From sequence record NC_055781.1: a stretch of DNA of 64,000 nucleotides, one strand, 5' to 3'. Source of the stretch: Escherichia phage p000v. Of the stretch, positions 5,093 through 52,650 are shown piece by piece. Position numbers and translations under genes: made by a program. Position 1 is the first letter of the stretch, and each line of letters starts with the position of its first letter. The notes below the pieces were generated by a model. That model saw only the letters and a list, made by a program, of their open reading frames with translations. It was not told the DNA's origin and ran no database searches.

Positions 5093-5316
5093 GCATACTA
5101 ACAGAAACTTTGATTAATGATCTGCGTCTAGCTGGTTACGAAGTTGGTACAAATAGTCTAGGTCTTCCTCAGATCGAAGGTCCTGGATTTATTCTAGAAT
5201 ACGAATTCAAACAATGGTGGTTATATGCTACGGTTGACGATGCGTTGAATATTGATTTCGTTGACCAATTTGATTCATTGGATGCTGCCTTATTTGCAGC
5301 AAAGGAACTAGAATGA
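5089..5316 (+). CDS. hypothetical protein
   Basis: 75 aa, ATGA overlap with upstream gene. Confidence 0.4.
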   Translation: MSILTETLINDLRLAGYEVGTNSLGLPQIEGPGFILEYEFKQWWLYATVDDALNIDFVDQFDSLDAALFAAKELE

Positions 5317-5582
5317 AATTAACTCGAATCAGTATAACTGAAGAAAAGCTGGGCGAATTTTACGTCGACAACTTTATGAAAGTTACGTATTTTCCATTTG
5401 TTAAAGGTGTCGGTTTTTGGGAAACTCATGTATCTCAATTAAACGAAGGCGACTATAACGAAACACATGAGAACTTTTTAGATTTTCTTTATGGAGCTGG
5501 ATTAACCGAGCTTTATATTGATATACATGAGTTCAAACGTTTAATGGAAAAAGTATTCCAGGCGTATTGTTTGCTCCGATAG
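5313..5582 (+). CDS. hypothetical protein
   Basis: 89 aa, ATGA overlap with upstream gene. Confidence 0.4.
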   Translation: MKLTRISITEEKLGEFYVDNFMKVTYFPFVKGVGFWETHVSQLNEGDYNETHENFLDFLYGAGLTELYIDIHEFKRLMEKVFQAYCLLR

Positions 5583-5589
5583 TATCTCG

Positions 5590-5633
5590 TGCTTTAAGAT
5601 AGGTCTCTAAATATTATGATATAATAGACCTAT
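5590..5633 (+). promoter_or_regulatory. promoter region upstream of gene 55 (MotA-box-like TGCTTTA plus several -10-like hexamers inside an 8-bp inverted repeat)
   Basis: TGCTTTA at 5590-5596; TATTAT/TATGAT/TATAAT overlapping; inverted repeat ATAGGTCT (5599-5606) / AGACCTAT (5626-5633). Confidence 0.35.
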
Positions 5634-5654
5634 GAATTGAGCCAAGAGGTACTT

Positions 5655-6212
5655 ATGACTGAACAAAAACCTAAAAATAACTATGTGAATAATAAAGAGC
5701 TTCTCGCCGCTATAATCGAGTGGAAAAAGGAGCTCTTAAATAATAAAGACCCAAACAAAATTATTCGTCAGAATGATACCATCGGTTTAGCAATTATGCT
5801 TATCGCCGAAGGCCTGTCCAAACGTTTCAACTTTTCAGGATATACCCAGTCTTGGAAGCAGGAGATGATTGCAGATGGGATTGAAGCCTCTATTAAGGGA
5901 CTTCATAATTTCGACGAAACTAAGTACAATAACCCACATGCATACATAACTCGAGCTTGTTTTAATGCTTTTGTCCAACGTATCAAAAAAGAACGTAAGG
6001 AAGTTGCAAAGAAATATAGTTACTTCGTTCATAATGTCTACGACAGTCATGACGATGATATGGTAGCGTTGGTAGATGAAACGTTTATTCAAGACATCTA
6101 CGATAAAATGACGCATTATGAAGAATCCGCTTATAAAGCTCCTGGGGCTGAAAAGAAGGAAGTTGTTAGCGATTCGCCTAGTTTGGATTTTTTATATGAG
6201 GATGACAATTGA
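5655..6212 (+). CDS. 55: late-transcription sigma factor gp55
   Basis: 185 aa (same length as T4 gp55); ATG at 5655 after GAGG RBS; position between the nrd cluster and gene 47. Confidence 0.85.
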
Positions 6213-6411
6213 CATCTCTAACTACTTAGAAGAACCTTTTGACGAAGCAATCCCTTATTTGGTAAAACTGTTGGGTCGTGAATTTAAAATTAATTTTGAC
6301 ATCGACCCTTTGAACCCACATGACGTGTCATTTTCAATAAATGGGACTCCAGTTGAGTACGAGTTCTGTATTGAAGAGGATGGACGTTTTTATTTTAATT
6401 TAATGAGATAA
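6196..6411 (+). CDS. hypothetical protein
   Basis: ATG overlapping the 3' end of gene 55; about 71 aa. Confidence 0.35.
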
Positions 6412-6412
6412 T

Positions 6413-6736
6413 ATGACTACCGAGATTATTGAAAATAAAGAAGCAGAAGATGCAGTAGCTAAAATGCTACAAGAAATCCAAAAGAAAAATGAAGCTGAAG
6501 CACGTAAAAAATCCGAAAAGATTCTTAAAAAGAATCGTTTTGAACTAAACCGTCTTTATGCACATGCTCAAGAAGCAGCAATTCAAAACAACTTCGAAGC
6601 TTACGAATATGCTATTAAGAAATCTCGGGATATTCTACGACAACCATATAATGACAAGTTAATTAAAATCCAGTGGATTACTACTCGTCAGGCTATTGAG
6701 GACATCATTAATGGCGCTAGTTCAAACAAAGTTTAA
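6413..6736 (+). CDS. hypothetical protein (predicted helical, charged)
   Basis: 107 aa, Lys/Glu-rich. Confidence 0.4.
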   Translation: MTTEIIENKEAEDAVAKMLQEIQKKNEAEARKKSEKILKKNRFELNRLYAHAQEAAIQNNFEAYEYAIKKSRDILRQPYNDKLIKIQWITTRQAIEDIINGASSNKV

Positions 6737-6917
6737 ACGTCTGAAGCTGAACGCAGGGTTCTCTCTTAAATTGGGAGGTCCTCTTTGTGTTAAAATTTCT
6801 GAAAAGGAATATCACGACGGTTCTATTACAGAAATTTGTCCGCCTATTGTAAAGGCAGACCCAAAACAACTCGTATGGGTCGATTCATTTCAAGTTAAGA
6901 AATGGTGGAAACGATGA
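6711..6917 (+). CDS. hypothetical protein
   Basis: ATG at 6711 with GAGG about 10 nt upstream, overlaps upstream 3' end; 68 aa. Confidence 0.35.
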   Translation: MALVQTKFKRLKLNAGFSLKLGGPLCVKISEKEYHDGSITEICPPIVKADPKQLVWVDSFQVKKWWKR

Positions 6918-6956
6918 GAGAAATTGATTTAGGCATTTTCTGAGAGGTGCTTATGC

Positions 6957-7130
6957 ATGACGAACATCCCGACTTCTGAAAATTTCGATAAAATCCGTAA
7001 AGGCAAAGCAGAAAGAATGAGACGTTTTAAAGAGTCTTATGATAAAGCTAAAGCCGAAGGAACTATTACGTACAAGCCCATTCGATTTAAAAGTTCAAAT
7101 GAGCCTTTGTACGGTGTACTATGTGGATAG
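6957..7130 (+). CDS. hypothetical small protein (57 aa, below ORF-track cutoff)
   Basis: ATG after GAGAGG RBS; ends 1 nt before an intrinsic terminator. Confidence 0.3.
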   Translation: MTNIPTSENFDKIRKGKAERMRRFKESYDKAKAEGTITYKPIRFKSSNEPLYGVLCG

Positions 7131-7153
7131 GAACTCTTCGGAGTTCCTTTTTT
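7129..7153 (+). terminator. intrinsic terminator (AGGAACTC-ttcg-GAGTTCCT then TTTTT)
   Basis: 8-bp stem, UUCG tetraloop, T-run. Confidence 0.6.
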
Positions 7154-7176
7154 GCTTTATAAACGGATGATAGAAT
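7153..7176 (+). promoter_or_regulatory. MotA-dependent middle promoter upstream of gene 47
   Basis: TGCTTTA MotA box, 11-nt spacer, TAGAAT -10; 24 nt before the ATG at 7200. Confidence 0.55.
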
Positions 7177-7199
7177 GAATTAACTAATGAGGAAATAAT

Positions 7200-8219
7200 A
7201 TGAAAATTTTGCACTTAGGCGACTTCCATATCGGAGTCAAACAAGACGACCCATGGGTCCAAGATATTCAACGTGATGGTATTCGTCAAGCAATTGAATA
7301 CTCTAAGAAACACGGGATTAAAACTTGGATTCAGTACGGTGATTGGTTTGACGTCCGTAAAGCAATAACACATCGTACAATGGAATTCAATCGTGAAATC
7401 GTTGATATGATTTCTAAAGCAGGCATTCACGTTCATGTCACGATAGGAAACCATGACATGGCGTTTAAGAATACAATAACACCTAACACTGTTTCTGAAT
7501 TGTTAACTCAATTTGAAAACTTTACTATTTACGAACATCCAACTACTGTAGATTTTGACGGATGTCTGATTGATATCGTTCCGTGGATGTGTGAAGAAAA
7601 TACAGGTGAAATCTTAGAGCACATCAAGACTTCTTCTGCTGCGTATTGCGTTGGTCACTGGGAACTGAACGGCTTTTATTTCTATAAAGGAATGAAGTCT
7701 CATGGGCTTGAACCTGATTTCTTAAAGACCTATAAACAAGTCTGGTCTGGCCACTTCCACACAATCTCTGAAGCTGCTAACGTCAAATATATTGGGACAC
7801 CATGGACCCTTACTGCAGGTGACGAGAACGACCCACGTGGATTCTGGGTATTTGACACTGATGTTGAACGTATGGAATTTATTCCTAATGAAACAACATG
7901 GCATCGACGAATCACTTATCCATTTAAAGGCAAAATCAATTATTCTGATTATACTAATCTAGCCGTACGTGTTATAGTATCAGAAATTGATTCAGAGTTG
8001 ACTAAATTTGAATCTGAACTTGAAAAAGTAGTTCACTCTCTTCGTATGGTTTCTAAAGTTGATAACAGTGTTGAATCTGATGACGACCAGGAAATCGAGA
8101 TTAAATCACTTCAAGATATCATTAAAGAATATATTGACGCGATTCCAGATATCTCAGACGAAGACAGAGAAGCGCTGGTCAAATATTCCAACGAACTTTA
8201 TATTGAGGCAACACAATGA
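7200..8219 (+). CDS. 47: recombination endonuclease subunit gp47 (Mre11-like)
   Basis: 339 aa; phosphoesterase motifs LGDFH, GDWFD, GNHD. Confidence 0.9.
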   Translation: MKILHLGDFHIGVKQDDPWVQDIQRDGIRQAIEYSKKHGIKTWIQYGDWFDVRKAITHRTMEFNREIVDMISKAGIHVHVTIGNHDMAFKNTITPNTVSELLTQFENFTIYEHPTTVDFDGCLIDIVPWMCEENTGEILEHIKTSSAAYCVGHWELNGFYFYKGMKSHGLEPDFLKTYKQVWSGHFHTISEAANVKYIGTPWTLTAGDENDPRGFWVFDTDVERMEFIPNETTWHRRITYPFKGKINYSDYTNLAVRVIVSEIDSELTKFESELEKVVHSLRMVSKVDNSVESDDDQEIEIKSLQDIIKEYIDAIPDISDEDREALVKYSNELYIEATQ

Positions 8220-16592: not shown

Positions 16593-17228
16593 ATGAAAAC
16601 TACACCAATCACTATCGCTATTGACGCAATCGTAAAACAAGCTTCATCTCTTGCCACTATGGCTAAAGTAATTAGTCAAAACTCTGCCCGATATAATGCT
16701 ATTCTTGAAACTCTTCGTCGCCCTGGACTGAGTAATTATGAAAGCCGAGTAATTATTACAGGTGTTGGTAAGAACGCTAATATCGCAACTAAAGCTTCCG
16801 AGACTTTTGCTTCACTAGGTATTCCTAGCATGTATTTGAACACCGGGCATTATTCTCATGGCGACGCAGGATTTATTGCACCTAATGATGTATTAGTTCA
16901 CATCAGTCGTTCTGGTAAGACTGAAGAAATGATAGGTGTTGCTAAACATCTTCGTATGATTCGTCCTCAGGTTAAACAGATTCTGTTACATTGTAACCCT
17001 GACATTCCGCAAGAATACGAAGCTCTTTTTGATTATACGTTCTGTACAGGCATCGCGGTAGAGGTTGATGAGAATTCTCTGGCTCCGACCATGTCCACTA
17101 CATTGTTGTTAGCGCTTATCGATACGTTTGCTATCAACCTTTCGTCTGAACGTGGATTTACCTCTAATGACTTCCTTAAGTTCCACCCTGGTGGTGCACT
17201 AGGTGCCATGTTACGAGGCGAACAATGA
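16593..17228 (+). CDS. SIS-domain sugar-phosphate isomerase, arabinose-5-phosphate isomerase-like (KdsD/GutQ N-domain type)
   Basis: 211 aa; VIITGVGKNANIA, HISRSGKTEE and C-terminal HPGGALG motifs typical of A5P isomerases; no CBS domains. Confidence 0.75.
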   Translation: MKTTPITIAIDAIVKQASSLATMAKVISQNSARYNAILETLRRPGLSNYESRVIITGVGKNANIATKASETFASLGIPSMYLNTGHYSHGDAGFIAPNDVLVHISRSGKTEEMIGVAKHLRMIRPQVKQILLHCNPDIPQEYEALFDYTFCTGIAVEVDENSLAPTMSTTLLLALIDTFAINLSSERGFTSNDFLKFHPGGALGAMLRGEQ

Positions 17229-17368
17229 AAGCAATAACAATAGGACTTTTACTATTGATGCTTGTCATGACTATCTACTGGAGCTTAACGGCTCCAGTAA
17301 TGATTCCGACTCTTATAATCGGATGGATTATGATTGGACTACAAGCAAAGTATGAATGCTTTAACTAG
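17225..17368 (+). CDS. small two-helix membrane peptide (47 aa)
   Basis: ATGA overlap with isomerase stop; MKAITIGLLLLMLVMTIYWSLTAPVMIPTLIIGWIMIGL; below ORF-track cutoff. Confidence 0.35.
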   Translation: MKAITIGLLLLMLVMTIYWSLTAPVMIPTLIIGWIMIGLQAKYECFN

Positions 17369-17381
17369 AATAGTGTACAAT
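17357..17381 (+). promoter_or_regulatory. MotA-dependent middle promoter upstream of the nucleotidyltransferase-kinase gene
   Basis: TGCTTTA box, 12-nt spacer, TACAAT -10; 28 nt before the ATG at 17410. Confidence 0.5.
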
Positions 17382-17409
17382 ACACCTACTTACCAATGAG
17401 GACTTCAAC

Positions 17410-19095
17410 ATGAAAAAAGCTGTTATTCTTGGTGCTGGACTGGCAACTCGTTTGTATCCAATAACGCACCATATTCCTAAGGTGCTTGTTAACTATAAAC
17501 AAGACACTATTCTGAGCAATTTGTATACAATTTATTCTGACCTTGGCGCAGATGAAATTATTGTAGTAGTTCATTCAAAATTTGCTGAAACTGTTCGAGC
17601 TTATTGCGAGCAAGAAGGGTTCAATGTGACTATTCGTACAGTTGATGAAGCGTATGGTTCTGCTTATGCTCTTGCTAAATTATACAAAGATTTAGATGGC
17701 CATAACGTAATTGTTAACTGGTGTGATATTATTCCTGACTTTGGTTCATGGTCTTGGAATGTTAACGCAATCTATGTTAAGGGTGATGAATGTCGATATA
17801 ATTTCGATGGTGAAAATATCACTAACGTAGGTTCAACAGGTGGTAATGTTGTAGGAATTTATCAGTTCAAAGACTGGGAATTCTACATGGGTTCTACTGA
17901 TGAGGAAATTCACGAATACTGCAAAGGTCGTGATTTCGTAGAATTCCTTTACGGCAGTGCATTCAATAAATCAGAGCTTATGAATCTAATTGATTTAGGT
18001 GATATGCCTAAACTTGAAAAGGCTCATGAAGTTCGTGAACTGAATCGTAGTTTTAATGCAGTTGAAATTGGCGAAGAAACTGTAACTAAATTCGCGTTAA
18101 CCGAACAAGGTCGAGCTCTTCAAAAAGATGAGATTTCATGGTATTTGAAAGTGAAATCAGATTCAGTTCCTCAGTTAGTTTCGGTAAATGAAAATAATTT
18201 TGAAATGGAACGTATTAAAGGTAAGCCGGCATTTGAATATATTAAATCCAAATCAAGTCTTGCTCGTCCACAAATTGTTGATGCAATTTTAGATGCACTG
18301 AAATTCAGCACGGACACTTATTTTGTAAGTCCTGAAACTGTTCGCCGTGATTTCACTAAAGAGTTCTATACGAAAGTTATTGATCGTTGTGAAAGCATTC
18401 AGCCATTGATTGATTCATTTGGTAAAATCACACGTGTGAACTACACTAAGATTGGACGTCTGAAGCCAATGTTGAAACAAGCTTTAGAACATCTTATTCG
18501 TTATCATAACCGTTCTCAGGGACAGTACTCTGTTATTCATGGTGACCCGAACTTCAGTAATACTATGATTACCGATAACGGCGAAGTCAAGTTTATCGAC
18601 CCTCGTGGATATTTTGGTGAAACCAAGATTTACGGGCCAAAATTGTATGATGAAGCTAAAGTGCTTTATGCTGTTTCAGGTTATGATGAATTCAATGCTA
18701 ATCCGACCTGGGGTCAGTTTACTATTGATGAAACAACTTGTAATGTGACTATTAACATCAATCCATTAGTTTACAAATATGGAAAGATGAGTTCGTTTAA
18801 CGAGTATCATCATTTGGCAGTAGCAATTATCTGGATTGCATTAGGTGGTTATTTCAAGAATAATCCACTTAAAGCGGTTGCCGCATATTATAAAGGTATG
18901 GAACTTCTGACTAAGCAATTACGTAACATGGGCCGTGTACTTCAAGACGGCTCTATTAGTTATGACGTAGCAGAACCTGTAACGGCTACTCTGATTACAA
19001 AAAATCCTGGTAAATGGGTACTAACTGATAAAGAAACTGGTGTTTCCTATCGTCCAATCGGCGGCGATATCACTCATCAATGGGAACGAATCTAA
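17410..19095 (+). CDS. bifunctional sugar-1-phosphate nucleotidyltransferase (N-terminal) / sugar kinase of APH-choline-kinase type (C-terminal)
   Basis: 561 aa; N-terminal KKAVILGAGLATRLYPIT (G-x-G-T-R-L-x-P-x-T nucleotidyltransferase signature); C-terminal HGDPNFSNTMI...IDPRG catalytic-loop-like motifs. Confidence 0.7.
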   Translation: MKKAVILGAGLATRLYPITHHIPKVLVNYKQDTILSNLYTIYSDLGADEIIVVVHSKFAETVRAYCEQEGFNVTIRTVDEAYGSAYALAKLYKDLDGHNVIVNWCDIIPDFGSWSWNVNAIYVKGDECRYNFDGENITNVGSTGGNVVGIYQFKDWEFYMGSTDEEIHEYCKGRDFVEFLYGSAFNKSELMNLIDLGDMPKLEKAHEVRELNRSFNAVEIGEETVTKFALTEQGRALQKDEISWYLKVKSDSVPQLVSVNENNFEMERIKGKPAFEYIKSKSSLARPQIVDAILDALKFSTDTYFVSPETVRRDFTKEFYTKVIDRCESIQPLIDSFGKITRVNYTKIGRLKPMLKQALEHLIRYHNRSQGQYSVIHGDPNFSNTMITDNGEVKFIDPRGYFGETKIYGPKLYDEAKVLYAVSGYDEFNANPTWGQFTIDETTCNVTININPLVYKYGKMSSFNEYHHLAVAIIWIALGGYFKNNPLKAVAAYYKGMELLTKQLRNMGRVLQDGSISYDVAEPVTATLITKNPGKWVLTDKETGVSYRPIGGDITHQWERI

Positions 19096-19481
19096 TGCAC
19101 CGTGTAGAAAACATGCTTAATCTTTGTTTTGATGTCGATGATTGTATAACAGAGTGGAATAACAATCGTGATTACGTGAACTTCAAACCAGACGTCGAAA
19201 TGGTGTCTGCCATTAATGCCCTGTATGATGCAGGGCATACCATAACGCTTTACACTGCCCGTGGTATGAAGTCGGTAGGTCCTGGTCGTATAGCAATTGA
19301 CATTCTCCCAAGTCTGATTCAGAACTTGGAAAACATTGGTTTGAAGTACCATAATTTGCTAACACATAAACCAGTATATGATTGGATTATCGACGACAAA
19401 GCTATGCGTCCTGACGAATTCAAAGCTCTTATGAATAAAGGCGAATTCGAAACATTTAAATCATATAAACCAAATCTATAA
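19095..19481 (+). CDS. small HAD-like phosphatase (putative)
   Basis: about 129 aa from ATG overlapping upstream stop (TAATG); FDVDDCIT resembles HAD motif I, WIIDDK resembles motif IV; capless. Confidence 0.45.
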   Translation: MHRVENMLNLCFDVDDCITEWNNNRDYVNFKPDVEMVSAINALYDAGHTITLYTARGMKSVGPGRIAIDILPSLIQNLENIGLKYHNLLTHKPVYDWIIDDKAMRPDEFKALMNKGEFETFKSYKPNL

Positions 19482-19538
19482 TAATTTAAGTAAGACCTGC
19501 AAAAACCATCGCATCAATTAACGCGAGATGCAAAAAAA

Positions 19539-20699
19539 ATGAATACTTTTAAAATCGGAACGAATTTTGATTTAGCTCTTCTTGATAAAATCGTAGAGCT
19601 CAATAAAACCTATCCTAATAGCTTGATAAACGAAGTATATGGCTCTACAAGAGAAATGGCTTTTGTAGCAGCCAGACCTGATTTTAGGCTTCCTGACGTT
19701 GACAAAAAGATGTTAGAAGACTACGTTAAACGTTGTAACGAATTAGGTATTTGCTTTAACTATACACTCAACACGATAAATCCTGGTTCAAAAAGAGAAC
19801 TAGTTGAGTGGAAGAAGAAAGCTATTCAGGATTATGTTCAGTATCTTTGGTCAATAGGCGTATGGCGTATTACTATCGCTAACCCTGTTGTTATGGAAAT
19901 TGTTCGTGAAGTCAATAAAGATATTGAGATTGAAGTTTCAACAATTCTACATGTCGATGCGGTAACTCAAATCAAATACTTACATGACCAATATAACATC
20001 AAAAAGGTCTGTTGCGGAATTCATAAGAACCGTTCAGTTTCTTTCCTGAAGCGTGCAGCAGAGTTTTGCAATAAGAACAATATAATATTTGAAGTTCTTG
20101 TAAATGAGTTCTGTTCTAATGCTGGTAAAGGGTATACAACACATTGTAGTTATCGTGACTCTTGCTATATTTTCCATAGTACTGATGTTACCGCTGATGA
20201 TGCTAAATCCTTAAATGGATATCCTATGCAGCACTGTATTAAAGCTCGTGATACAGACCCATTTAACTGGTTGAGAACTCGTTTTGTTCGTCCTCAAGAT
20301 TTGAAACTTTATAATGATATTGGTATCACTCAATTCAAAGTTTCAGGACGTACAGGTAGCACAGACTACATTTTGAAAGTTCTTGAAGCATACGCTTCTG
20401 AAAAGTTTGAAGGTAATTTGTTAGAACTGTGGAAGCCTTTAGAGACTATTTTCACTCTTGAAAATGAGACTGAGTTTTCACATACAGTAAATATTGAAAC
20501 CTCTTTGTTAGATGGCTTTTTAGAAAAAAGGTGGTTCAGACATCCAGATTTTGATTGTGCTAATGAAATCTGTGGGTCAACGTGTACATATTGTGAAAGG
20601 TATTATAAACGTCAATTATCTAAAAACGGGTTAGCAGAAAACTCCATATCTATTATTGATATAACTAACTCTGATGACGCTTTGAGGTACCCGGAATGA
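19539..20699 (+). CDS. Cys-rich protein, possible U32-family TIM-barrel/Fe-S enzyme
   Basis: 386 aa; motif order FKIGTNFD, NEVYGS, YTLNT, EVLVNEFCSNAGKGYTTHCSYRDSC resembles peptidase-U32 signatures by eye; C-terminal CANEICGSTCTYC Cys4 cluster. Confidence 0.35.
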   Translation: MNTFKIGTNFDLALLDKIVELNKTYPNSLINEVYGSTREMAFVAARPDFRLPDVDKKMLEDYVKRCNELGICFNYTLNTINPGSKRELVEWKKKAIQDYVQYLWSIGVWRITIANPVVMEIVREVNKDIEIEVSTILHVDAVTQIKYLHDQYNIKKVCCGIHKNRSVSFLKRAAEFCNKNNIIFEVLVNEFCSNAGKGYTTHCSYRDSCYIFHSTDVTADDAKSLNGYPMQHCIKARDTDPFNWLRTRFVRPQDLKLYNDIGITQFKVSGRTGSTDYILKVLEAYASEKFEGNLLELWKPLETIFTLENETEFSHTVNIETSLLDGFLEKRWFRHPDFDCANEICGSTCTYCERYYKRQLSKNGLAENSISIIDITNSDDALRYPE

Positions 20700-20977: not shown

Positions 20978-21694
20978 ATGGGAAAACATAACACAATGAA
21001 ATATATCAAAGCCGCAGATTTTCAAACCGCATTTAAAGCAGTCAATCGTGAAATTTTAGAAAACCCGGAATTCGTAACTGATTCTCGTATTGGACGTTGT
21101 AATGAAATTGGGTCTATGACAGTAGTTGTTGACACTCCATCATCATTCAAAATGACCGACCCACGTATTAACCGCATCTCTTATGAATATGCCGAAGACT
21201 TCTGGAAGTTTATGATTTCTGGTGGTACCAACGCAGAAGAAGCGTTTAAGGCATATCCTAATGTCGCTAAATTTATTTCTAAACCAAAATCAGATGTTTT
21301 GCCGGCGAACTTCAACACTTTCTATGGTCCTCGCATTGCGGCCCAATTACCAACTCTTCTAAAAGAACTTAAAGAGAAGCCTAACTCCCGAAGAGTTGTG
21401 TTCCAAATTCTAGAAAGTTCTGATCAGGCTTTGCTTGATTCGGACGAAACACTTGAATATCCATGTACTGACTCAGTAACTTATTATATTCGTGATGGTA
21501 AGCTTTATACCCACTGTCATATGCGTTCTCAGAACTGTGCTGTTGTTATGCAGTTGGATTTTTATCTCCAAGGAAAATTACTTCATTATATCGCTAACGA
21601 ATGCGGTGTAGAAGTTGGTGATTATACTCATACCATGGTAAGTGCCCATGTGTTTGAACGTGATTTTGATTATGTTAAAGGATTCCTTGACTAA
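20978..21694 (+). CDS. 42: dCMP hydroxymethylase gp42 (thymidylate-synthase fold)
   Basis: 238 aa, close to T4 gp42 length; assigned by position after gene 43 and size; no catalytic motif checked by eye. Confidence 0.85.
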   Translation: MGKHNTMKYIKAADFQTAFKAVNREILENPEFVTDSRIGRCNEIGSMTVVVDTPSSFKMTDPRINRISYEYAEDFWKFMISGGTNAEEAFKAYPNVAKFISKPKSDVLPANFNTFYGPRIAAQLPTLLKELKEKPNSRRVVFQILESSDQALLDSDETLEYPCTDSVTYYIRDGKLYTHCHMRSQNCAVVMQLDFYLQGKLLHYIANECGVEVGDYTHTMVSAHVFERDFDYVKGFLD

Positions 21695-22593
21695 TGGCTA
21701 TTTTCCGCGTACCAATCTTGAGTATGCGGTCTTATGAAACTGGACAGTATGCTATCCTTAAGGATGGCAACTTCCAACTTCATTTGCACCGTGCTAATCC
21801 GGGTGATGTGATTACATATCCACGTAATGCATCTGATATTAAAGAATGCGAACGTCTTTTCCCAGAATTTAAGTTTGTTCCATTATGGTATAAAGATAAC
21901 GCGTATAACACTCGTAAATATTTCTGGACTGAAAATGAATTTGTGGTTGATTCATTAATTGATTATTATGATTGTGATTTTCTAATCACAGATATCACTG
22001 GTTATGGTGGCGCTTTTGATGTGGAATTCAATTTCAATATCACTGCAGACCCTAATAAACCACGTTTTTATATTGATGAATTCTTAAAAACCGACATGTT
22101 GTCTGTTAATCGTTCACTTCAAACTACTGTGTTGAATGAACGTCAAAAAGAAGTGCTGGTTAACGCAGGTGCAGATGGTAATAAGATTATCGTAACGCAG
22201 AAAGTTATACGTCCTTCCATCATGCAGCGTCTTGTAGGTGATTTGGCTCCTATTCATCTAGATGGTATTTTTCATCCATTTCGAATTAGTGACCCATGTT
22301 ATCGTTTTGAACAAGTGGTTGAATGTGCAATTCAATTAGGTCAACCGCTTTATATAACCGATCCAAATAATAGCTTCGACAGAAATAAGTATCCTGAAGA
22401 AGCGCTGATTCGAATTTTTAAACCAACTAAAACTGAGTACTATCAAATTCTTAAAGGACGTCCGAAAATTCAATATTTCGAAAATCCTGAAGAAGTATTC
22501 CATCCAGGTCTTGGTGAGTTCATCTACTTTAATGCTTTAATTTCTTCGCCGTATAATATACCTAAATACGAAGATGTCGTAATCGAGGAATAA
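21694..22593 (+). CDS. hypothetical protein occupying the T4 beta-glucosyltransferase slot
   Basis: 299 aa; TAATG overlap with gene 42 stop; no resemblance to T4 beta-gt seen by eye. Confidence 0.45.
   Translation: MAIFRVPILSMRSYETGQYAILKDGNFQLHLHRANPGDVITYPRNASDIKECERLFPEFKFVPLWYKDNAYNTRKYFWTENEFVVDSLIDYYDCDFLITDITGYGGAFDVEFNFNITADPNKPRFYIDEFLKTDMLSVNRSLQTTVLNERQKEVLVNAGADGNKIIVTQKVIRPSIMQRLVGDLAPIHLDGIFHPFRISDPCYRFEQVVECAIQLGQPLYITDPNNSFDRNKYPEEALIRIFKPTKTEYYQILKGRPKIQYFENPEEVFHPGLGEFIYFNALISSPYNIPKYEDVVIEE
22533..22557 (+). promoter_or_regulatory. MotA-dependent middle promoter inside the 3' end of the 299-aa gene
   Basis: TGCTTTA box, 12-nt spacer, perfect TATAAT; 38 nt before the ATG at 22595. 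Confidence 0.5.
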
Positions 22594-31011: not shown

Positions 31012-31533
31012 ATGGCACACTTTAACGAATGTTCACAACTTATTTCTGGTGTTGATAAAGCAGAAGAAGCTTATTTTAATGCTCTGATTCACGAAGATAA
31101 AGACCCACTGCAGGTAATGCTTGATATGCAGAAATCTTTACAGGTTCGTCTGGCAAATGACAAGCCTGAACATAACAAACATCCTGATGAATTGGCCACT
31201 GCTGGTGATGTTGTTGATTGGCTGCGTAATCAGAAAGATTATATTGATGATGAATTTCGTGAACTGCTGACTTCACTTGGTGGTATGAGCAACGGTGAAA
31301 AAGCCGCCAGCAGTGTATGGAAGCCGTGGAAGGCACAACACGCTGAATATCGAAATCGTCGTATCGATGAACTGTCTCCTGAAGACCAGCTCGAAATTAA
31401 ATTCGAAATGATTGATATTCTGCACTTCGTTCTGAACATGTTCCAAGGTCTGGGTCTTTCCGCTGAAGAAATCTTTAAACTTTACTACTTGAAAAACCAA
31501 CACAACTTTGAACGTCAGGATAATGGTTACTGA
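31012..31533 (+). CDS. 56: dCTP pyrophosphatase gp56 (MazG-like)
   Basis: 173 aa from ATG at 31012; T4 gp56 size; MazG-like helical acidic motifs. Confidence 0.8.
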   Translation: MAHFNECSQLISGVDKAEEAYFNALIHEDKDPLQVMLDMQKSLQVRLANDKPEHNKHPDELATAGDVVDWLRNQKDYIDDEFRELLTSLGGMSNGEKAASSVWKPWKAQHAEYRNRRIDELSPEDQLEIKFEMIDILHFVLNMFQGLGLSAEEIFKLYYLKNQHNFERQDNGY

Positions 31534-40305: not shown

Positions 40306-40728
40306 ATGGCTTTTAAAGGTTTTGAAGTTGGTAAGAAATATCGTATTATCAAAGGTCAAGAAGATAATTTCTTGAGAATTCTTAATACGACTGGTAAACG
40401 TCTTAACACTACTCTGCATACAGTTTTATTATCAAGAGATTTTATTGTAGAAGAGATGATTGGCTACGGTGTTTCAATGATTGCCGCTGAAACCGATGGA
40501 CCTGGACGTACAATCATTAGTATGCAAGGTGATATTCTAATTTACGGTGCAGAATTTAAATTCTTTGAAGAAGTTCAGGAACCAGATACAGCTGTCGATT
40601 TCAAAAAAGGCTCTATAGAATTTGTTGATGGTTCGGTGATCGTATCAGGCGATGTGGTCATTACAGTTAAAAGTGAACAAGGGCGTTTGGCTGCAATTGA
40701 TGCACTTCAGAAAATTAAATTTAAATAA
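40306..40728 (+). CDS. hypothetical protein
   Basis: 140-aa ORF; followed by a terminator. Confidence 0.45.
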   Translation: MAFKGFEVGKKYRIIKGQEDNFLRILNTTGKRLNTTLHTVLLSRDFIVEEMIGYGVSMIAAETDGPGRTIISMQGDILIYGAEFKFFEEVQEPDTAVDFKKGSIEFVDGSVIVSGDVVITVKSEQGRLAAIDALQKIKFK

Positions 40729-40746
40729 GGGCTTCGGCCCTTTTTG
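40728..40746 (+). terminator. intrinsic terminator (AGGGC-ttcg-GCCCT then TTTTT)
   Basis: UUCG hairpin and T-run upstream of gene 39. Confidence 0.6.
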
Positions 40747-40791
40747 CTTTAGATTTCGGATGATAGAATACCTTCATAACGAGGAGACAAC

Positions 40792-42612
40792 ATGATTAAA
40801 AATGAAATTAAGGTATTGTCGGATGTAGAACATATTAAGAAACGTAGTGGCATGTATATTGGTTCTTCTGCTAAAGAAGCCCACGAGCGTTTTTTGTTTG
40901 GTAAATATCAACAAGTTGAATATGTTCCTGGTCTGGTTAAATTAATCGATGAGATTATTGACAACTCGGTTGATGAAGCTATTCGTACATCATTTAAGTT
41001 TGCAAATAAAATTGATGTGCAAATTAAAAATAATCAAGTTTCGGTGGAAGATAACGGACGTGGTATTCCTCAAGGTTTAGTTACCGACCAAACAGGTGAA
41101 CAAATTCCTGGGCCTGTAGCAGCCTGGACTATTCCAAAGGCCGGTGGTAACTTTGGTGATGACTCTGAACGTAAGACTGGTGGTATGAACGGCGTCGGGA
41201 GTAGTTTAACTAATATCTTCTCTACGTTGTTTACAGGCATCACGTCAGATGGCGAAAATGAAATCACTGTTAACTGTTCAAACGGAATGGAAAACAAATC
41301 ATGGTCTTCTAAGAAATCTAAAGGTAAAGGCACTAAAGTAATCTTCACTCCTGATTTCACTTCATTTGAAGAGCATAATTTATCTCAAATTTATTTAGAT
41401 ATTACTTTAGACCGACTTCAAACATTGGCAGTCGTTTATCCTGATATCAAGTTCACATTTAATGGTAAAAAGGTCGATGGTAATTTTAAACGATTTGCTA
41501 AACAATTTGGTGAAGATAACATCATTCAAGAAAATGATAAAGTCTCTATAGCATTCACAACATCACCAGATGGCTTCCGTCATTTAACTTATGTGAATAA
41601 CATCCATACTAAAAATGGTGGACATCATGTTGAATGTGTAATGGACGATATCTGCGAACATCTTTTGCCGGGTATTAAAAAGAAATATAAGGGTATTGAA
41701 GTCACTAAAGCTCGTGTTAAAGAATGTCTCACAATGTTGATGTTTATTAGAGACATGAGCAACATGCGTTTTGATTCTCAGACTAAAGAACGTTTAACGT
41801 CAACGTACGGTGATATTCGTAATCATATCCAATTAGATGCTAAGAAAATTGCTCAGGCACTTCTTAAAAATGAAGCCTTGATTATGCCTATTGTTGAAGC
41901 AGCATTAGCTCGTAAATTGGCGGCAGAAAAGGCTGCAGAAACTAAAGCAGCTAAAAAGGCAACTAAAGCTAAGGTTCATAAGCATATTAAAGCTAACCAA
42001 TGTGGTAAAGATGCAGATACGACATTGTTTTTAACAGAAGGTGATTCGGCAATTGGATATCTCATTGATGTTCGTGACCGTGAACTACATGGTGGATTCC
42101 CATTACGTGGTAAGGTGATGAATAGCTGGGGTATGTCATATGCTGATATGATGAAGAACAAAGAGCTCTTTGATATCTGTGCTATCACGGGTCTTATTCT
42201 TGGTGAAAAAGCAGAGAATACGAACTATCGTAATATTGCAATTATGACCGATGCCGATCATGACGGCCTTGGAAGTATTTATCCTGCTTTGCTTGCTTTC
42301 TTTAGTAATTGGCCTGAATTGTTTGAACAAGGACGTATTCGCTTTGTTAAAACACCTGTAATTATTGCACAAATTGGCAAAACTCAAAAATGGTTTTATA
42401 CTGTAGCTGAGTATGAAGAAGTTAAAGATACACTGCCTAAGCATAGTATTCGATACATCAAGGGATTGGGCTCACTTCAGCGGGATGAATATAAAGAAAT
42501 GATTCAAAACCCTGTGTACGACGTAGTTAAACTTCCTGAAAATTGGAAAGAACTATTTGAAATGCTCATGGGTAACGACCCTGAACTCCGTAAAGATTGG
42601 ATGCTAGGATAA
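40792..42612 (+). CDS. 39: DNA topoisomerase II large subunit gp39 (GyrB-like), uninterrupted
   Basis: 606 aa; GHKL ATPase region (IDEIIDNSVDEA) and TOPRIM (LFLTEGDSA, IMTDADHDG); no split into 39 and 60. Confidence 0.9.
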   Translation: MIKNEIKVLSDVEHIKKRSGMYIGSSAKEAHERFLFGKYQQVEYVPGLVKLIDEIIDNSVDEAIRTSFKFANKIDVQIKNNQVSVEDNGRGIPQGLVTDQTGEQIPGPVAAWTIPKAGGNFGDDSERKTGGMNGVGSSLTNIFSTLFTGITSDGENEITVNCSNGMENKSWSSKKSKGKGTKVIFTPDFTSFEEHNLSQIYLDITLDRLQTLAVVYPDIKFTFNGKKVDGNFKRFAKQFGEDNIIQENDKVSIAFTTSPDGFRHLTYVNNIHTKNGGHHVECVMDDICEHLLPGIKKKYKGIEVTKARVKECLTMLMFIRDMSNMRFDSQTKERLTSTYGDIRNHIQLDAKKIAQALLKNEALIMPIVEAALARKLAAEKAAETKAAKKATKAKVHKHIKANQCGKDADTTLFLTEGDSAIGYLIDVRDRELHGGFPLRGKVMNSWGMSYADMMKNKELFDICAITGLILGEKAENTNYRNIAIMTDADHDGLGSIYPALLAFFSNWPELFEQGRIRFVKTPVIIAQIGKTQKWFYTVAEYEEVKDTLPKHSIRYIKGLGSLQRDEYKEMIQNPVYDVVKLPENWKELFEMLMGNDPELRKDWMLG

Positions 42613-43409
42613 TGAATTATCGTAAAATTTATGATAAACTTATCGCTGCGGCTAAAAACCGCAGCACTATTCCTAATTATACTGAAACTCACCATATTTT
42701 GCCTAAATCTATGGGTGGGAGTAATGCTAAATCAAATCTAGTTAAAATGACCCCTAGAGAGCATTTTATCGCCCATTTATTGCTTTATAAAATTCATAAG
42801 AACCGTTCTATGCTTATGGCTATTAGAGCTTTTTACATGGGAGCTAGAAATTCTAGAGATTATGATTGGCTTAAACAAGAATTCTCTAAAGAGCACTCTA
42901 GATTTATGAAAGAATGGATTGCTAAAAATGGCAACCCATTTAAAGGTAAAAAACATACTAAAGCAACAAGAGAATTAATGTCACATATTGCTTCACAACG
43001 TATAGGCGAATTAAATCCGTTTTATGGTAAAACTCATACGCAAGAAGCAATAGATAAAATAATACAGGCCAACAAGTTATCTTGGGAGAATGGGCGAAAA
43101 GCACCTGTAAAAACAAAAGAACACCAGGATAAAATAACTAAATCAAGAATGGAAACATTTAAAACAAAAGGATTTAAACCATACACTCCTAGGTCGGAAG
43201 AAACTAAAGCTAAGACTAGAGAGTTGTATAAATCTAAATATGAAAGAAGGCCTATAAGAATCACAAGTGTAAAAACAGGTGAAACTATTGATTTTAACTA
43301 TCTTTATGAATTAAGGGAGTATTTAGGTATAGGGTCTTCTAATATATTGAAAGCATTAAATAATCCTAACAGAACCTGCAAAGGTTATAAAATGTGTTGG
43401 ATGTCCTAA
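42612..43409 (+). CDS. HNH homing endonuclease with NUMOD3 repeats (freestanding mobile gene)
   Basis: HNH motif ETHHILPKSMGGSNAKSNLVKMTPREH; repeats NPFKGKKHTKATRE and NPFYGKTHTQEAIDKI; ATG overlaps gene 39 stop. Confidence 0.8.
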   Translation: MNYRKIYDKLIAAAKNRSTIPNYTETHHILPKSMGGSNAKSNLVKMTPREHFIAHLLLYKIHKNRSMLMAIRAFYMGARNSRDYDWLKQEFSKEHSRFMKEWIAKNGNPFKGKKHTKATRELMSHIASQRIGELNPFYGKTHTQEAIDKIIQANKLSWENGRKAPVKTKEHQDKITKSRMETFKTKGFKPYTPRSEETKAKTRELYKSKYERRPIRITSVKTGETIDFNYLYELREYLGIGSSNILKALNNPNRTCKGYKMCWMS

Positions 43410-43451: not shown

Positions 43452-44552
43452 ATGAAAGTTATGTTTATCCCATCTCGCGCAGTCCCATTTAACCCAGAAC
43501 GTGTACAAGGTGGTCTTGAAGCAGTACATTTAAATGTATTGAAATATCTTGTGTCCATCGGTGCTGATATTGATTATATCGGCTTTGATAATGACACGTT
43601 TGGTGACTGGAAGGTTAATCATCATCCTGTTGGTCATCTGACTAAATTCAGTCTAGGTATGAGTTATACTATGGCTCGTAAGATTGTTGAACTAGCCGGC
43701 ATCCATGAATACGATTTTGTTGTTACTATGGAACCGACTAAACTAACCGTTCAGGCAATTAAAGACGCAGGTCTCTCTAAAGTTCATAAGAATTTTATGG
43801 CAACACCATTTGAACCGGTATCTCGTGGCATTGTTCAAATTTGGGACCAGACTATTCAAATTCATAAGAATGGTGGTAAGAGTTATGCTCCTACTAAAGC
43901 CTTCCGTGAATTTGAACGCAAATATTGTTATATGACTTCAGGTCTGACTGACAAAATTGATTATGATTATTGGCGAGCAAATCCGTTGTTTGAAGCCGAA
44001 GATTATCCGGTTATTTGTTTGACTGAAAAGCCAGAAGTTCTTCCGGCGACGGATCTGATTATTAGTGCACAACGTTATGACACTAAAATGCGTCGTACTG
44101 ATGTTGCTCTTGAAGCGATTAAAGCACTAGGCGAAAATGGTGCAGGATACTGTCCTAGTAAATGGGCACCACCAGCTAAATATCCTGTTATTATTGATGC
44201 TCCACACAGCGAAATCATGGAACGTCTTAAAACAGCTAAAGCACTTATCAATACGTGTCCTGACACGGGTACGGTAGAGAATAGTTCTATTGAAGCCATC
44301 TCTAAAGGTGTCCCTGTGATTCAGTTAGTTTTTAAGGATTATCCGCACGCGACATTCGAATATGACCCAGATACTGTGCGTGTAGAAATTGATTCCTCTA
44401 CTCCTAAGAAAGAAGTAGTTGCGCTTTACACAAAAGCTGTATTAGAATTCACTGACACATACGAAGCTCGAGTTAAACGTGCTGAAGCAGTATGGAAGAA
44501 GTATAACCGAGATGCAGTTGTTGCGATGTGGGATAAAATCTTCACAGCGTAA
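43452..44552 (+). CDS. GT-B fold glycosyltransferase (GT4-like), candidate DNA hydroxymethylcytosine arabinosyltransferase
   Basis: 366 aa; N-terminal MKVMFIPS...GGLEAVHLNVLKYL and C-terminal TGTVENSSIEAISKGVPVIQ resemble the GT4 E-x7-E/PVI motif. Confidence 0.65.
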   Translation: MKVMFIPSRAVPFNPERVQGGLEAVHLNVLKYLVSIGADIDYIGFDNDTFGDWKVNHHPVGHLTKFSLGMSYTMARKIVELAGIHEYDFVVTMEPTKLTVQAIKDAGLSKVHKNFMATPFEPVSRGIVQIWDQTIQIHKNGGKSYAPTKAFREFERKYCYMTSGLTDKIDYDYWRANPLFEAEDYPVICLTEKPEVLPATDLIISAQRYDTKMRRTDVALEAIKALGENGAGYCPSKWAPPAKYPVIIDAPHSEIMERLKTAKALINTCPDTGTVENSSIEAISKGVPVIQLVFKDYPHATFEYDPDTVRVEIDSSTPKKEVVALYTKAVLEFTDTYEARVKRAEAVWKKYNRDAVVAMWDKIFTA

Positions 44553-52017: not shown

Positions 52018-52650
52018 ATGTCTAAAGTTACTTACATCATCAAAGCTTCTGAAAACGCTCTGAATGAAAAAACTGCTGCAATAATGGTTTATATCATTAA
52101 GAACAACTTCACCACTGCTGCCAATGTCCGTGAAGCTCTGGAAGCAGAATACAATGCATCAGTTGTTAACTCTAACATCGGTGTATTGATTAAGAAAGGT
52201 TTAGTCGAAAAATCAGGTGATGGACTTGTAGCAACAGGCGAAGCAATGGATATTATCCAAAAAGCCGCAGATCTATTTGCTCAAGAAAATGCTCCAGAAC
52301 TTCTTCAGAAACGTAACACTAGAAAAGCACGTGGAGTTACTCCTGAAATGCATGAATTAGCAAACTTTGTTTTTGAAAATATTAAAGATAAAGTTGAAGT
52401 TAAAGAAATTGGTGAAAACCGTAGTAACTTAGAAGTTCGATTTGCAAAACGAGTTCTAGGTATTCGTCAGATCGAAATTCGTCGAGATGGCGCTCTTAGA
52501 ATCTTTGCATACAACATGTCAGAAACTGAATCAAAGCTGTTTACTTCTCTTGAAAATGATGTTAAGATTAAGATCGGTGGTAAATATACTTACATTGACT
52601 TCCCTAATGTGTCCAAAGAAATCATTACCCTTGTAACTAACGTACTGTGA
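52018..52650 (+). CDS. motA: middle-transcription activator MotA
   Basis: 210 aa (T4 MotA is 211); N-terminus MSKVTYIIKAS and SNIGVLIKKGLVEKSGDGL match T4 MotA as recalled. Confidence 0.8.
   Translation: MSKVTYIIKASENALNEKTAAIMVYIIKNNFTTAANVREALEAEYNASVVNSNIGVLIKKGLVEKSGDGLVATGEAMDIIQKAADLFAQENAPELLQKRNTRKARGVTPEMHELANFVFENIKDKVEVKEIGENRSNLEVRFAKRVLGIRQIEIRRDGALRIFAYNMSETESKLFTSLENDVKIKIGGKYTYIDFPNVSKEIITLVTNVL

Follow-up and report, generated by a model that had tools for sequence, protein, structure and literature searches.

What has become of the alpha-glucosyltransferase (a-gt) locus in a T-even phage that carries no a-gt? The question is raised by a stretch of 64,000 nucleotides from Escherichia phage p000v (sequence record NC_055781.1), referred to here as the window, with positions counted from its first letter. 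Between genes 55 and 47, where phage T4 has a-gt, positions 6196-7199 of the window contain four small open reading frames (ORFs). The original prediction held that these ORFs occupy the a-gt locus and that the lineage has swapped glucosylation for another sugar on hydroxymethylcytosine (hmC). We found that positions 6196-7199 very probably represent the standard RB69-type 55-47 interval, long annotated and already known, and that this would be the best full explanation of the locus. The annotation of RB69 has named these four genes for two decades, the absence of glucosyltransferases together with the presence of arabinose was published in 2018, and 5-hydroxycytosine followed in 2026. The analysis therefore carries little weight as a discovery, and its value lies in three corrections: a-gt is not substituted by the four ORFs, which are its conserved neighbours, the modification of this lineage is not an hmC sugar, and a "swap" is unproven as the direction of change.

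The interval between genes 55 and 47

By its sequence, the placement of the window in Mosigvirus, as an RB69-like T-even phage, is not in doubt. Positions 5600-7300 are 99.0-99.6% identical to many Escherichia phages classed as Mosigvirus (the RB69 genus), and 144 deposited phage records cover at least 80% of these positions. Over the first 25 kb of the window, the best record is that of phage FP43, with 97.8% identity. The features of the interval and its flanks are listed below, with lengths in amino acids (aa) or nucleotides (nt) and isoelectric points (pI).

5655-6212, + strand: gene 55 (late sigma factor gp55), the upstream flank, annotated as 55 in near-identical Mosigvirus records
6196-6411, + strand: a-gt.5 orthologue, DUF5491; 71 aa, pI 4.3; 17-nt overlap with the end of gene 55, likewise in T4
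6413-6736, + strand: a-gt.4 orthologue, DUF2654; 107 aa, pI 9.1; the largest ORF in 6196-7199
6711-6917, + strand: a-gt.3 orthologue; 68 aa, pI 9.8; its ATG lies within a 73-aa TTG ORF; 26-nt overlap with a-gt.4
6957-7130, + strand: a-gt.2 orthologue, DUF5486; 57 aa, pI 9.8; the last gene ahead of the terminator cassette
7129-7148, + strand: intrinsic-terminator-like hairpin with an 8-bp stem, four G-C pairs, a UUCG loop and six T (T-run 7148-7153)
7150-7176, + strand: predicted MotA-dependent middle promoter for gene 47, with MotA box tttTGCTTTA at 7150-7159, an 11-nt spacer and -10 element TAGAAT at 7171-7176
7200-8219, + strand: gene 47 (SbcD/Mre11-like nuclease subunit), the downstream flank

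The original prediction placed ORFs of 71, 107, 68 and 57 aa between the two flanking genes, and all four are present on the + strand as listed. The product of gene 55 is 91% identical to T4 gp55 over 182 aa (tblastn, E 3e-114), and that of gene 47 is 76% identical to T4 gp47 over 339 aa. Gene 55 and a-gt.5 overlap by 17 nt, a-gt.5 and a-gt.4 are 1 nt apart, a-gt.4 and a-gt.3 overlap by 26 nt, and 39 nt separate a-gt.3 from a-gt.2. The terminator, the promoter and a ribosome-binding site (RBS), and nothing else, take up the 69 nt that lead from a-gt.2 to gene 47 (7131-7199).

In RB69 (NC_004928, 38972-41536), the interval reads 55/a-gt.5/a-gt.4/a-gt.3/a-gt.2/47, and its genes, order, overlaps, terminator and promoter are those of the window. 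The intergenic cassettes of the two phages are one base apart (TAGAAT in the window, TAAAAT in RB69). The window phage is a mosaic relative of RB69, which otherwise shows no difference of substance in the 55-47 interval. The records of RB69 and vB_Eco_mar005P1 already give the four ORFs the names a-gt.5, a-gt.4, a-gt.3 and a-gt.2.

Searches of the interval for other elements gave no Rfam match at E <= 1 for a hidden RNA, and only short repeats at chance level. A stretch within the 3' end of gene 55 (6125-6139) and the MotA box and spacer (7154-7168) form an inverted repeat of 15 nt with 93% complementarity. This pairing is probably due to chance, since seven other inverted pairs of similar size occur in the same 3 kb.

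Gain or loss of the a-gt module

The gene order in the T4 record is 55, a-gt.5, a-gt.4, a-gt.3, a-gt.2, mobB, a-gt, 47.1 and 47. The four small genes of T4 (NC_000866, 35428-40157) are orthologous to those of the window (47-76% identity) and share their order and pattern of overlaps. The additional ~2.2 kb of T4 comprise the HNH homing endonuclease gene mobB, the 400-aa a-gt, the 46-aa 47.1 and a second copy of the hairpin and promoter cassette. As judged from the two sequences, the sole difference in gene content from T4 in this interval is that the window is without mobB, a-gt and 47.1 between a-gt.2 and 47. For 47.1, the T4 protein gave no match in the window (E of at least 4), and no 47.1 ORF was found ahead of gene 47.

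We surveyed the content of the slot between genes 55 and 47 in nine genera.

T4 (Tequatrovirus): four small ORFs, mobB, a-gt and 47.1
T6 (Tequatrovirus): four small ORFs and a-gt
vB_VIPKPNUMC01 (Jiaodavirus): a-gt.5, a-gt.4, a-gt.3, one variable ORF and a-gt
IT22 (Roskildevirus): five small ORFs and a-gt
The window and RB69 (Mosigvirus): four small ORFs
VR7 (Gaprivervirus): four small ORFs
WG01 (Dhakavirus): four small ORFs and 47.1
PhiKpNIH-6 (Marfavirus): four small ORFs
KaAlpha (Karamvirus): four small ORFs
ECD7 (Krischvirus): a-gt.5 and a-gt.4 only

In this sample, a-gt was found only in phages of the T4 glucosylation type (Tequatrovirus, Jiaodavirus and Roskildevirus). Jiaodavirus and Roskildevirus have a-gt.5, a-gt.4 and a-gt.3 alongside a-gt, and their fourth position is weakly similar or variable. 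The slot is empty of a-gt in the other six genera, namely Mosigvirus, Gaprivervirus, Dhakavirus, Marfavirus, Karamvirus and Krischvirus. The Dhakavirus WG01 and the Marfavirus PhiKpNIH-6 carry RB69-type gp48 (78-79% identity) and gp46:47 (63-72%). Phages of the Karamvirus type glucosylate by means of beta-glucosyltransferase (b-gt) and beta-alpha-glucosyltransferase (ba-gt), without a-gt (Thomas 2018, Table 1, PMC6024577). Neither the T4 nor the RB69 modification system was found in the first 31.8 kb of VR7, a stretch with no gp42/gp48-type enzyme, glycosyltransferase or arabinose genes, in which dCTPase gp56 is kept. Between uvsX and gene 43 of VR7 (NC_014792, 24131-25345), there are only imm, 42.1 and one small ORF. 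The cytosine chemistry of VR7 may differ from those of both T4 and RB69.

The T4 module is bordered by two copies of the cassette. After a-gt.2, a UUCG hairpin is followed by attGCTTTA, 12 nt and TAAAAT, which is the mapped middle promoter PmobB (start 38682); after a-gt, a UUCG hairpin is followed by ttaGCTTTA, 12 nt and TATAAT, which is the mapped P47 (start 36576). These were the only two composite hairpin and MotA-promoter cassettes in the 20 kb of T4 scanned, and they exactly bracket mobB-a-gt. A cassette also stands on either side of a-gt in T6 and Jiaodavirus, with a degenerate box (TTTTTGCTA) in the 47-proximal copy of Jiaodavirus. All a-gt-less phages that were aligned have a single cassette. 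As such, the cassette is conserved from Mosigvirus to Jiaodavirus. In T4, the -10 element of P47 and the ATG of ORF 47.1 overlap, and transcription from the listed start would begin 8 nt within 47.1, so that a P47 transcript cannot carry the complete 47.1 coding sequence. In WG01, a 47.1 ORF is retained after the single cassette, whereas the window has none.

Two histories could have led to this distribution, and both draw on the promoter/stem-loop (PeSL) model, in which DNA lying between tandem cassettes is excised or integrated through them (Comeau et al. 2014, PMC4122927). We give an even chance to a gain in other lineages. The empty slot would then be ancestral, the a-gt module would have been inserted at the cassette in the glucosylating lineages, duplicating the cassette (with mobB joining later in T4), and Mosigvirus would never have had the module. 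The empty slots of Gaprivervirus, Dhakavirus, Marfavirus, Karamvirus and Krischvirus are consistent with this, as is the glucosylation of Karamvirus-type phages by b-gt and ba-gt alone, and integration of a minicircle with one cassette copy predicts the two flanking copies of T4. However, such a gain would take three independent insertions at one site or, failing that, a single old insertion with later losses, and the divergence of a-gt parallels that of the flanking core genes.

Loss in Mosigvirus is a possibility that we take seriously, short of calling it probable. The ancestor shared with T4 would have had a-gt between two cassettes, and recombination between these would have deleted the module once the base was no longer hmC. 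The precise flanking of mobB-a-gt by the two T4 cassettes argues for such a deletion, and deletion between tandem promoter/stem-loop cassettes has been documented for PeSLs (PMC4122927). The gene is found at the same slot in three genera, and its identity to T4 a-gt, at 66% in Jiaodavirus and 57% in Roskildevirus, runs parallel to that of gp47 (70% and 66%). In addition, Mosigvirus is the closest relative of Tequatrovirus by gp55 (89%) and gp47 (76%). The single cassette of the window has the a-gt.2-proximal hairpin context, and its spacer and -10 element (acggatgaTAGAAT) are nearer to those of T4 P47 (acggagtttgaTATAAT). This pattern is suggestive of a hybrid between the first and second T4 cassettes, which we keep as a hypothesis because the informative stretch is shorter than 25 nt. 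On the other side, the T4 cassettes share stretches of only 7-8 nt, too short for statistics, and the empty state is the commoner one and is also that of the outgroup Krischvirus. Homologous transfer into the same slot is possible through the conserved flanks 55 and 47, and the shared position is therefore no proof of vertical descent.

Since the empty slot is the commoner state, a gain in the T4 lineage is as likely as a loss here, and "swapped" does not hold as a direction of change. That the four ORFs are lineage-specific occupants, which replaced a-gt when the sugar changed, fits the absence of a-gt and their position between 55 and 47, but is hardly credible, because orthologues of all four sit beside a-gt in T4 and T6, the ORFs co-occur with a-gt in Jiaodavirus and Roskildevirus, a-gt.4 is spread over many genera, and relative to T4 sequence is only missing and none has been gained. 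The original prediction was correct that no a-gt is present at this locus; the notion of occupation fails, T4 having the same four genes in the same order.

The four small genes and the transcription signals

The four ORFs are real genes under purifying selection and not chance ORFs, because three of them pass Pfam gathering thresholds, all four match PHROGs, their ratios of nonsynonymous to synonymous substitution rates (dN/dS) are low and their distribution is wide. The a-gt.5 product matches PF17595 with 49.4 bits (cut-off 27) and phrog_1169, and is 100% identical to its RB69 counterpart and 47% to that of T4 (E 1e-14). The a-gt.4 product matches PF10849 with 95.9 bits (cut-off 25) and phrog_951, with identities of 99% to RB69 and 58% to T4 (E 4e-32). 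It has the widest spread of the four, being matched in 1445 phage records (tblastn), including T4-like phages of Vibrio, Aeromonas, Acinetobacter and Proteus. For a-gt.3, no Pfam family was matched; the protein belongs to phrog_1648 (E 1e-33) and is 98.5% identical to RB69 and 69% to T4 (E 6e-29). The a-gt.2 product, matched in 814 phage records (tblastn), hits PF17588 with 97.3 bits (cut-off 27) and phrog_2140, and is 95% identical to RB69 and 76% to T4 (E 3e-24). In between-genus comparisons, in which dS was often saturated, dN/dS was 0.05-0.43 for the four ORFs (0.05-0.37 for a-gt.5 and 0.05-0.40 for a-gt.3).

The four products have masses of 6.6-12.5 kDa, three being basic (pI 9.1-9.8) and one acidic (pI 4.3), and at this size they are too small for a GT-B glycosyltransferase. 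Pfam, PHROGs and NCBIfam returned only DUFs or "unknown" function for them, sequence searches of the PDB gave nothing at E < 0.7, and the literature on the function of a-gt.2 to a-gt.5 or DUF2654 yielded only one comparative-genomics mention, from 2006. A word-indexed homologue search with a-gt.5 found only two near-identical proteins, an alignment too shallow for a credible AlphaFold model. The four genes are kept in glucosyl-hmC phages (T4, T6 and, in part, Jiaodavirus) as well as in phages with arabinosylation genes (Mosigvirus, Dhakavirus and Marfavirus), and Krischvirus has two of them. Because they are conserved whichever cytosine modification the phage uses, we infer a role that is independent of the sugar. 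Most likely, they would be small binding or regulatory proteins of the prereplicative (early) period, with no part in sugar transfer.

One functional label was found and rejected. We regard the name "head maturation protease", attached to a-gt.2 through phrog_17354, as a misannotation that has propagated, since the profile matched has 62 positions and the protein 57 aa. In the RefSeq record of T6 (NC_054907, 2791-3171), the orthologue of a-gt.2 likewise appears as "head maturation protease" and that of a-gt.3 as "head assembly cochaperone with GroES". At lengths of 57 and 67 aa, such names almost certainly arose by propagated misannotation, and the protease label is also that of a PHROG assembled from fragments of this kind, phrog_17354.

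The original prediction also placed an intrinsic terminator and a canonical MotA middle promoter ahead of gene 47, and both were borne out as predicted elements. The hairpin at 7129-7148 has a minimum free energy of -13.9 kcal/mol (z = -3.9), and none of 200 shuffled sequences folded as well. It consists of a stable G+C-rich stem directly followed by a U-tract of six residues, as predicted for an intrinsic terminator, and a rho-independent terminator is annotated at the corresponding site in phage SA79RD. Of the eight other phages aligned, seven have a homologous hairpin 3' of the a-gt.2-like ORF; for IT22, the alignment did not include its own 47-proximal junction.

The predicted promoter at 7150-7176 fits the published MotA consensus, (a/t)(a/t)(a/t)TGCTTtA located 12 +/- 1 bp upstream of a sigma-70 -10 element TAtaaT (PMC2988021), in both sequence and spacing. 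It aligns with the experimentally mapped PmobB and P47 of T4 and is the only MotA-type site on the + strand within 5300-7300. Transcription would start at ~7183, and the RBS GAGGAA is located at 7189-7194. A pattern scan of the window found no counterpart of P-alpha-gt.4, the mapped internal promoter of T4 (GCTTTTA ... TAGAAT in a-gt.5). Two further features of the window concern the same signals.

40727-40769, + strand: a further composite cassette, GGGCTTCGGCCC ... GCTTTAGATTTCGGATGATAGAAT, upstream of gene 39 (40792-42612)
52018-52647, + strand: motA, with 99.5% identity to the annotated FP43 MotA across 210 aa

The promoter half of the gene 39 cassette (GGATGATAGAAT) is identical to that of gene 47, and T4 has a mapped middle promoter, P39, at the corresponding gene. 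In T4, asiA is located far from the 55-47 region. By homology to T4, genes 55 to a-gt.2 would form one prereplicative transcription unit closed by the UUCG-hairpin/U6 terminator, and a MotA/AsiA-dependent promoter lying on the T-run of this terminator would restart transcription at ~7183 into 47-46.2-46.1-46.

DNA modification genes and comparison with known systems

The complete arabinosylation gene set of RB69 is present in the window, with 91-100% identity. The main genes of this set, dCTPase gp56 and a second putative arabinosyltransferase included, are as follows.

16593-17228, + strand: arabinose-5-P isomerase, gp55-like
17410-19095, + strand: fused nucleotidyltransferase/kinase gp52:53, a single 561-aa ORF
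within 16593-20699, + strand: phosphatase, gp51-like
19539-20699, + strand: U32-family protein, gp50-like
20978-21694, + strand: ThyA-like 5-hydroxy-dCMP synthase, gp48 homologue (Pfam Thymidylat_synt)
21694-22593, + strand: putative arabinosyltransferase 1, gp46:47 homologue, a single 299-aa ORF
31012-31530, in the window: dCTPase gp56
43452-44552, + strand: ORF003c-type GT-B glycosyltransferase (putative arabinosyltransferase 2, gp3 homologue), 99.2% identical to RB69 ORF003c

The genes for UDP-arabinose synthesis (16593-20699, + strand), whose roles are as proposed in PMC13326640, are 96-100% identical to RB69 ORF055c-050c and contain the Pfam domains SIS, NTP_transferase and Peptidase_U32. 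A homologue of the kinase gp45 is also present in the window. The gp48 homologue shares 98.7% identity with RB69 gp48 and only 25% with T4 gp42. RB69 DNA was found to carry arabinose and not glucose, and its modification was described as arabinosyl-hmC (Thomas et al. 2018, PMC6024577). By mass spectrometry and nuclear magnetic resonance, the RB69 base has since been identified as 5-hydroxycytosine with one or two arabinoses in ether linkage, and gp48 was experimentally shown to be a 5-hydroxy-dCMP synthase (Lee et al., NAR 2026, PMC13326640). By homology to RB69, the ThyA-like enzyme of the window would turn dCMP into 5-hydroxy-dCMP, and one or two arabinoses would then be added to 5-hydroxycytosine by way of the UDP-arabinose genes and the two glycosyltransferases, 10-37 kb downstream of the slot. 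The a-gt slot would be empty because this phage does not glucosylate. The proposal that glucosylation was swapped for another hmC sugar is thus upheld in part: the window has arabinose pathway genes and no recognizable glucosyltransferase, whereas the RB69 base is 5-hydroxycytosine and not hmC, and the direction of a swap is unproven.

The position that would be labelled "gene 42" (20978-21694) is of the ThyA-like gp48 type, and the label "dCMP hydroxymethylase" would be wrong for it because RB69 gp48 makes 5-hydroxy-dCMP. The RB69 reference splits gp46:47 (046c/047c) and gp52:53 (052c/053c), whereas the window has each as one ORF. These uninterrupted ORFs lend independent support to the published interpretation of the RB69 splits as sequencing errors (Thomas 2018, PMC6024577).

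Searches for glucosyltransferases in the 64-kb window (tblastn) gave best E-values of 2.4 for T4 a-gt, 1.9 for T4 b-gt and 1.0 for T6 ba-gt. We found a-gt in 657 phage records, essentially always at full length. These comprise Tequatrovirus-type records with at least 80% identity; a band of 60-80%, in which Klebsiella and Raoultella phages are the members listed; and 10 that are more distant, among them Erwinia phage IT22 and cyanophages. Because the matches listed did not show whether any Mosigvirus was among the 657, FP43 was searched directly. The best E-values in its complete 169-kb genome (tblastn) were 0.043 for a-gt (over 69 aa), 3.8 for b-gt and 2.6 for ba-gt, none of them significant. 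RB69 is likewise without glucosyltransferases by BlastP (Thomas et al. 2018, PMC6024577). At the sequence level, these results support a lineage without alpha-, beta- or beta-alpha-glucosyltransferase.

It is extremely improbable that a functional a-gt homologue is encoded elsewhere in this genome. In genomes of this type, a-gt has a single distant structural relative, the ORF003c-type protein, a GT-B fold enzyme. ORF003c was found with a hidden Markov model derived from a-gt (E 3e-5; Thomas et al. 2018, PMC6024577), which makes it a very remote structural relative. However, ORF003c is without the glucose-contacting histidines of a-gt and has been assigned as an arabinosyltransferase, the second of its system (PMC6024577, PMC13326640), and the ORF003c-type protein shows no significant BLAST similarity to a-gt. 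The marginal a-gt match in FP43 might also be taken as a candidate, but it was rejected: the ORF concerned (18077-18679) has no Pfam domain, and its E-value is not significant. Moreover, among the matches listed, the records with a-gt were the Tequatrovirus-type, Klebsiella/Raoultella and 10 distant ones described above.

Several points weigh against our reading of the window as a standard RB69-type phage in this region. About 105 kb of the genome lie beyond the window and were covered only through the relative FP43, and what we say on DNA chemistry, transcript ends and promoter activity is drawn entirely from RB69 and T4. The 11-nt spacer of the gene 47 promoter is at the short edge of the 12 +/- 1 range, and of the MotA/AsiA pair, motA alone was looked for in the window. 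For the suggested binding or regulatory role of the four small proteins, the searches returned no solved structure, annotated family function or paper in direct support.

A mobB-like ORF was observed near the second glycosyltransferase gene. This ORF (42597-43409, + strand; probable ATG at 42612, ~265 aa) has a NUMOD3 motif, and its identity to T4 MobB, an HNH homing endonuclease, is 45% over the first 116 aa of that protein. The gap that it fills, between gene 39 and the ORF003c-type glycosyltransferase gene, measures 839 nt; the corresponding gap in RB69 and FP43 is 42 nt, and the gene is absent.

The cassettes themselves may be compared with PeSLs. The cassette of UUCG hairpin and MotA box could be a recombination joint for the gain or loss of the a-gt module, a middle-promoter analogue of PeSL shuffling. 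We consider this reading doubtful and put it forward tentatively, as a hypothesis, given that a middle promoter is involved and that recombination products have not been observed. If it is true, T-even phages would carry their DNA-modification enzymes as plug-in cassettes, set into regulatory joints already in place. Either way, the duplicated terminator and middle-promoter cassettes around the a-gt module of T4 are a small, testable pointer to the movement of modules between T-even phages. PeSLs are defined by a sigma-70 early promoter together with a stem-loop. Here, the stem-loop precedes the promoter, which is a MotA-dependent middle promoter, and the resemblance is functional only. Like PeSLs, the cassettes consist of a stem-loop and a promoter, are intergenic, lie at the borders of variable modules and, as tandem copies, flank a module within one genome. 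The homing endonuclease offers another point of comparison: RB69 has no such gene beside its glycosyltransferase, whereas T4 pairs mobB with a DNA glycosyltransferase gene, and so does the window, where the mobB-like ORF adjoins the gp3 homologue.

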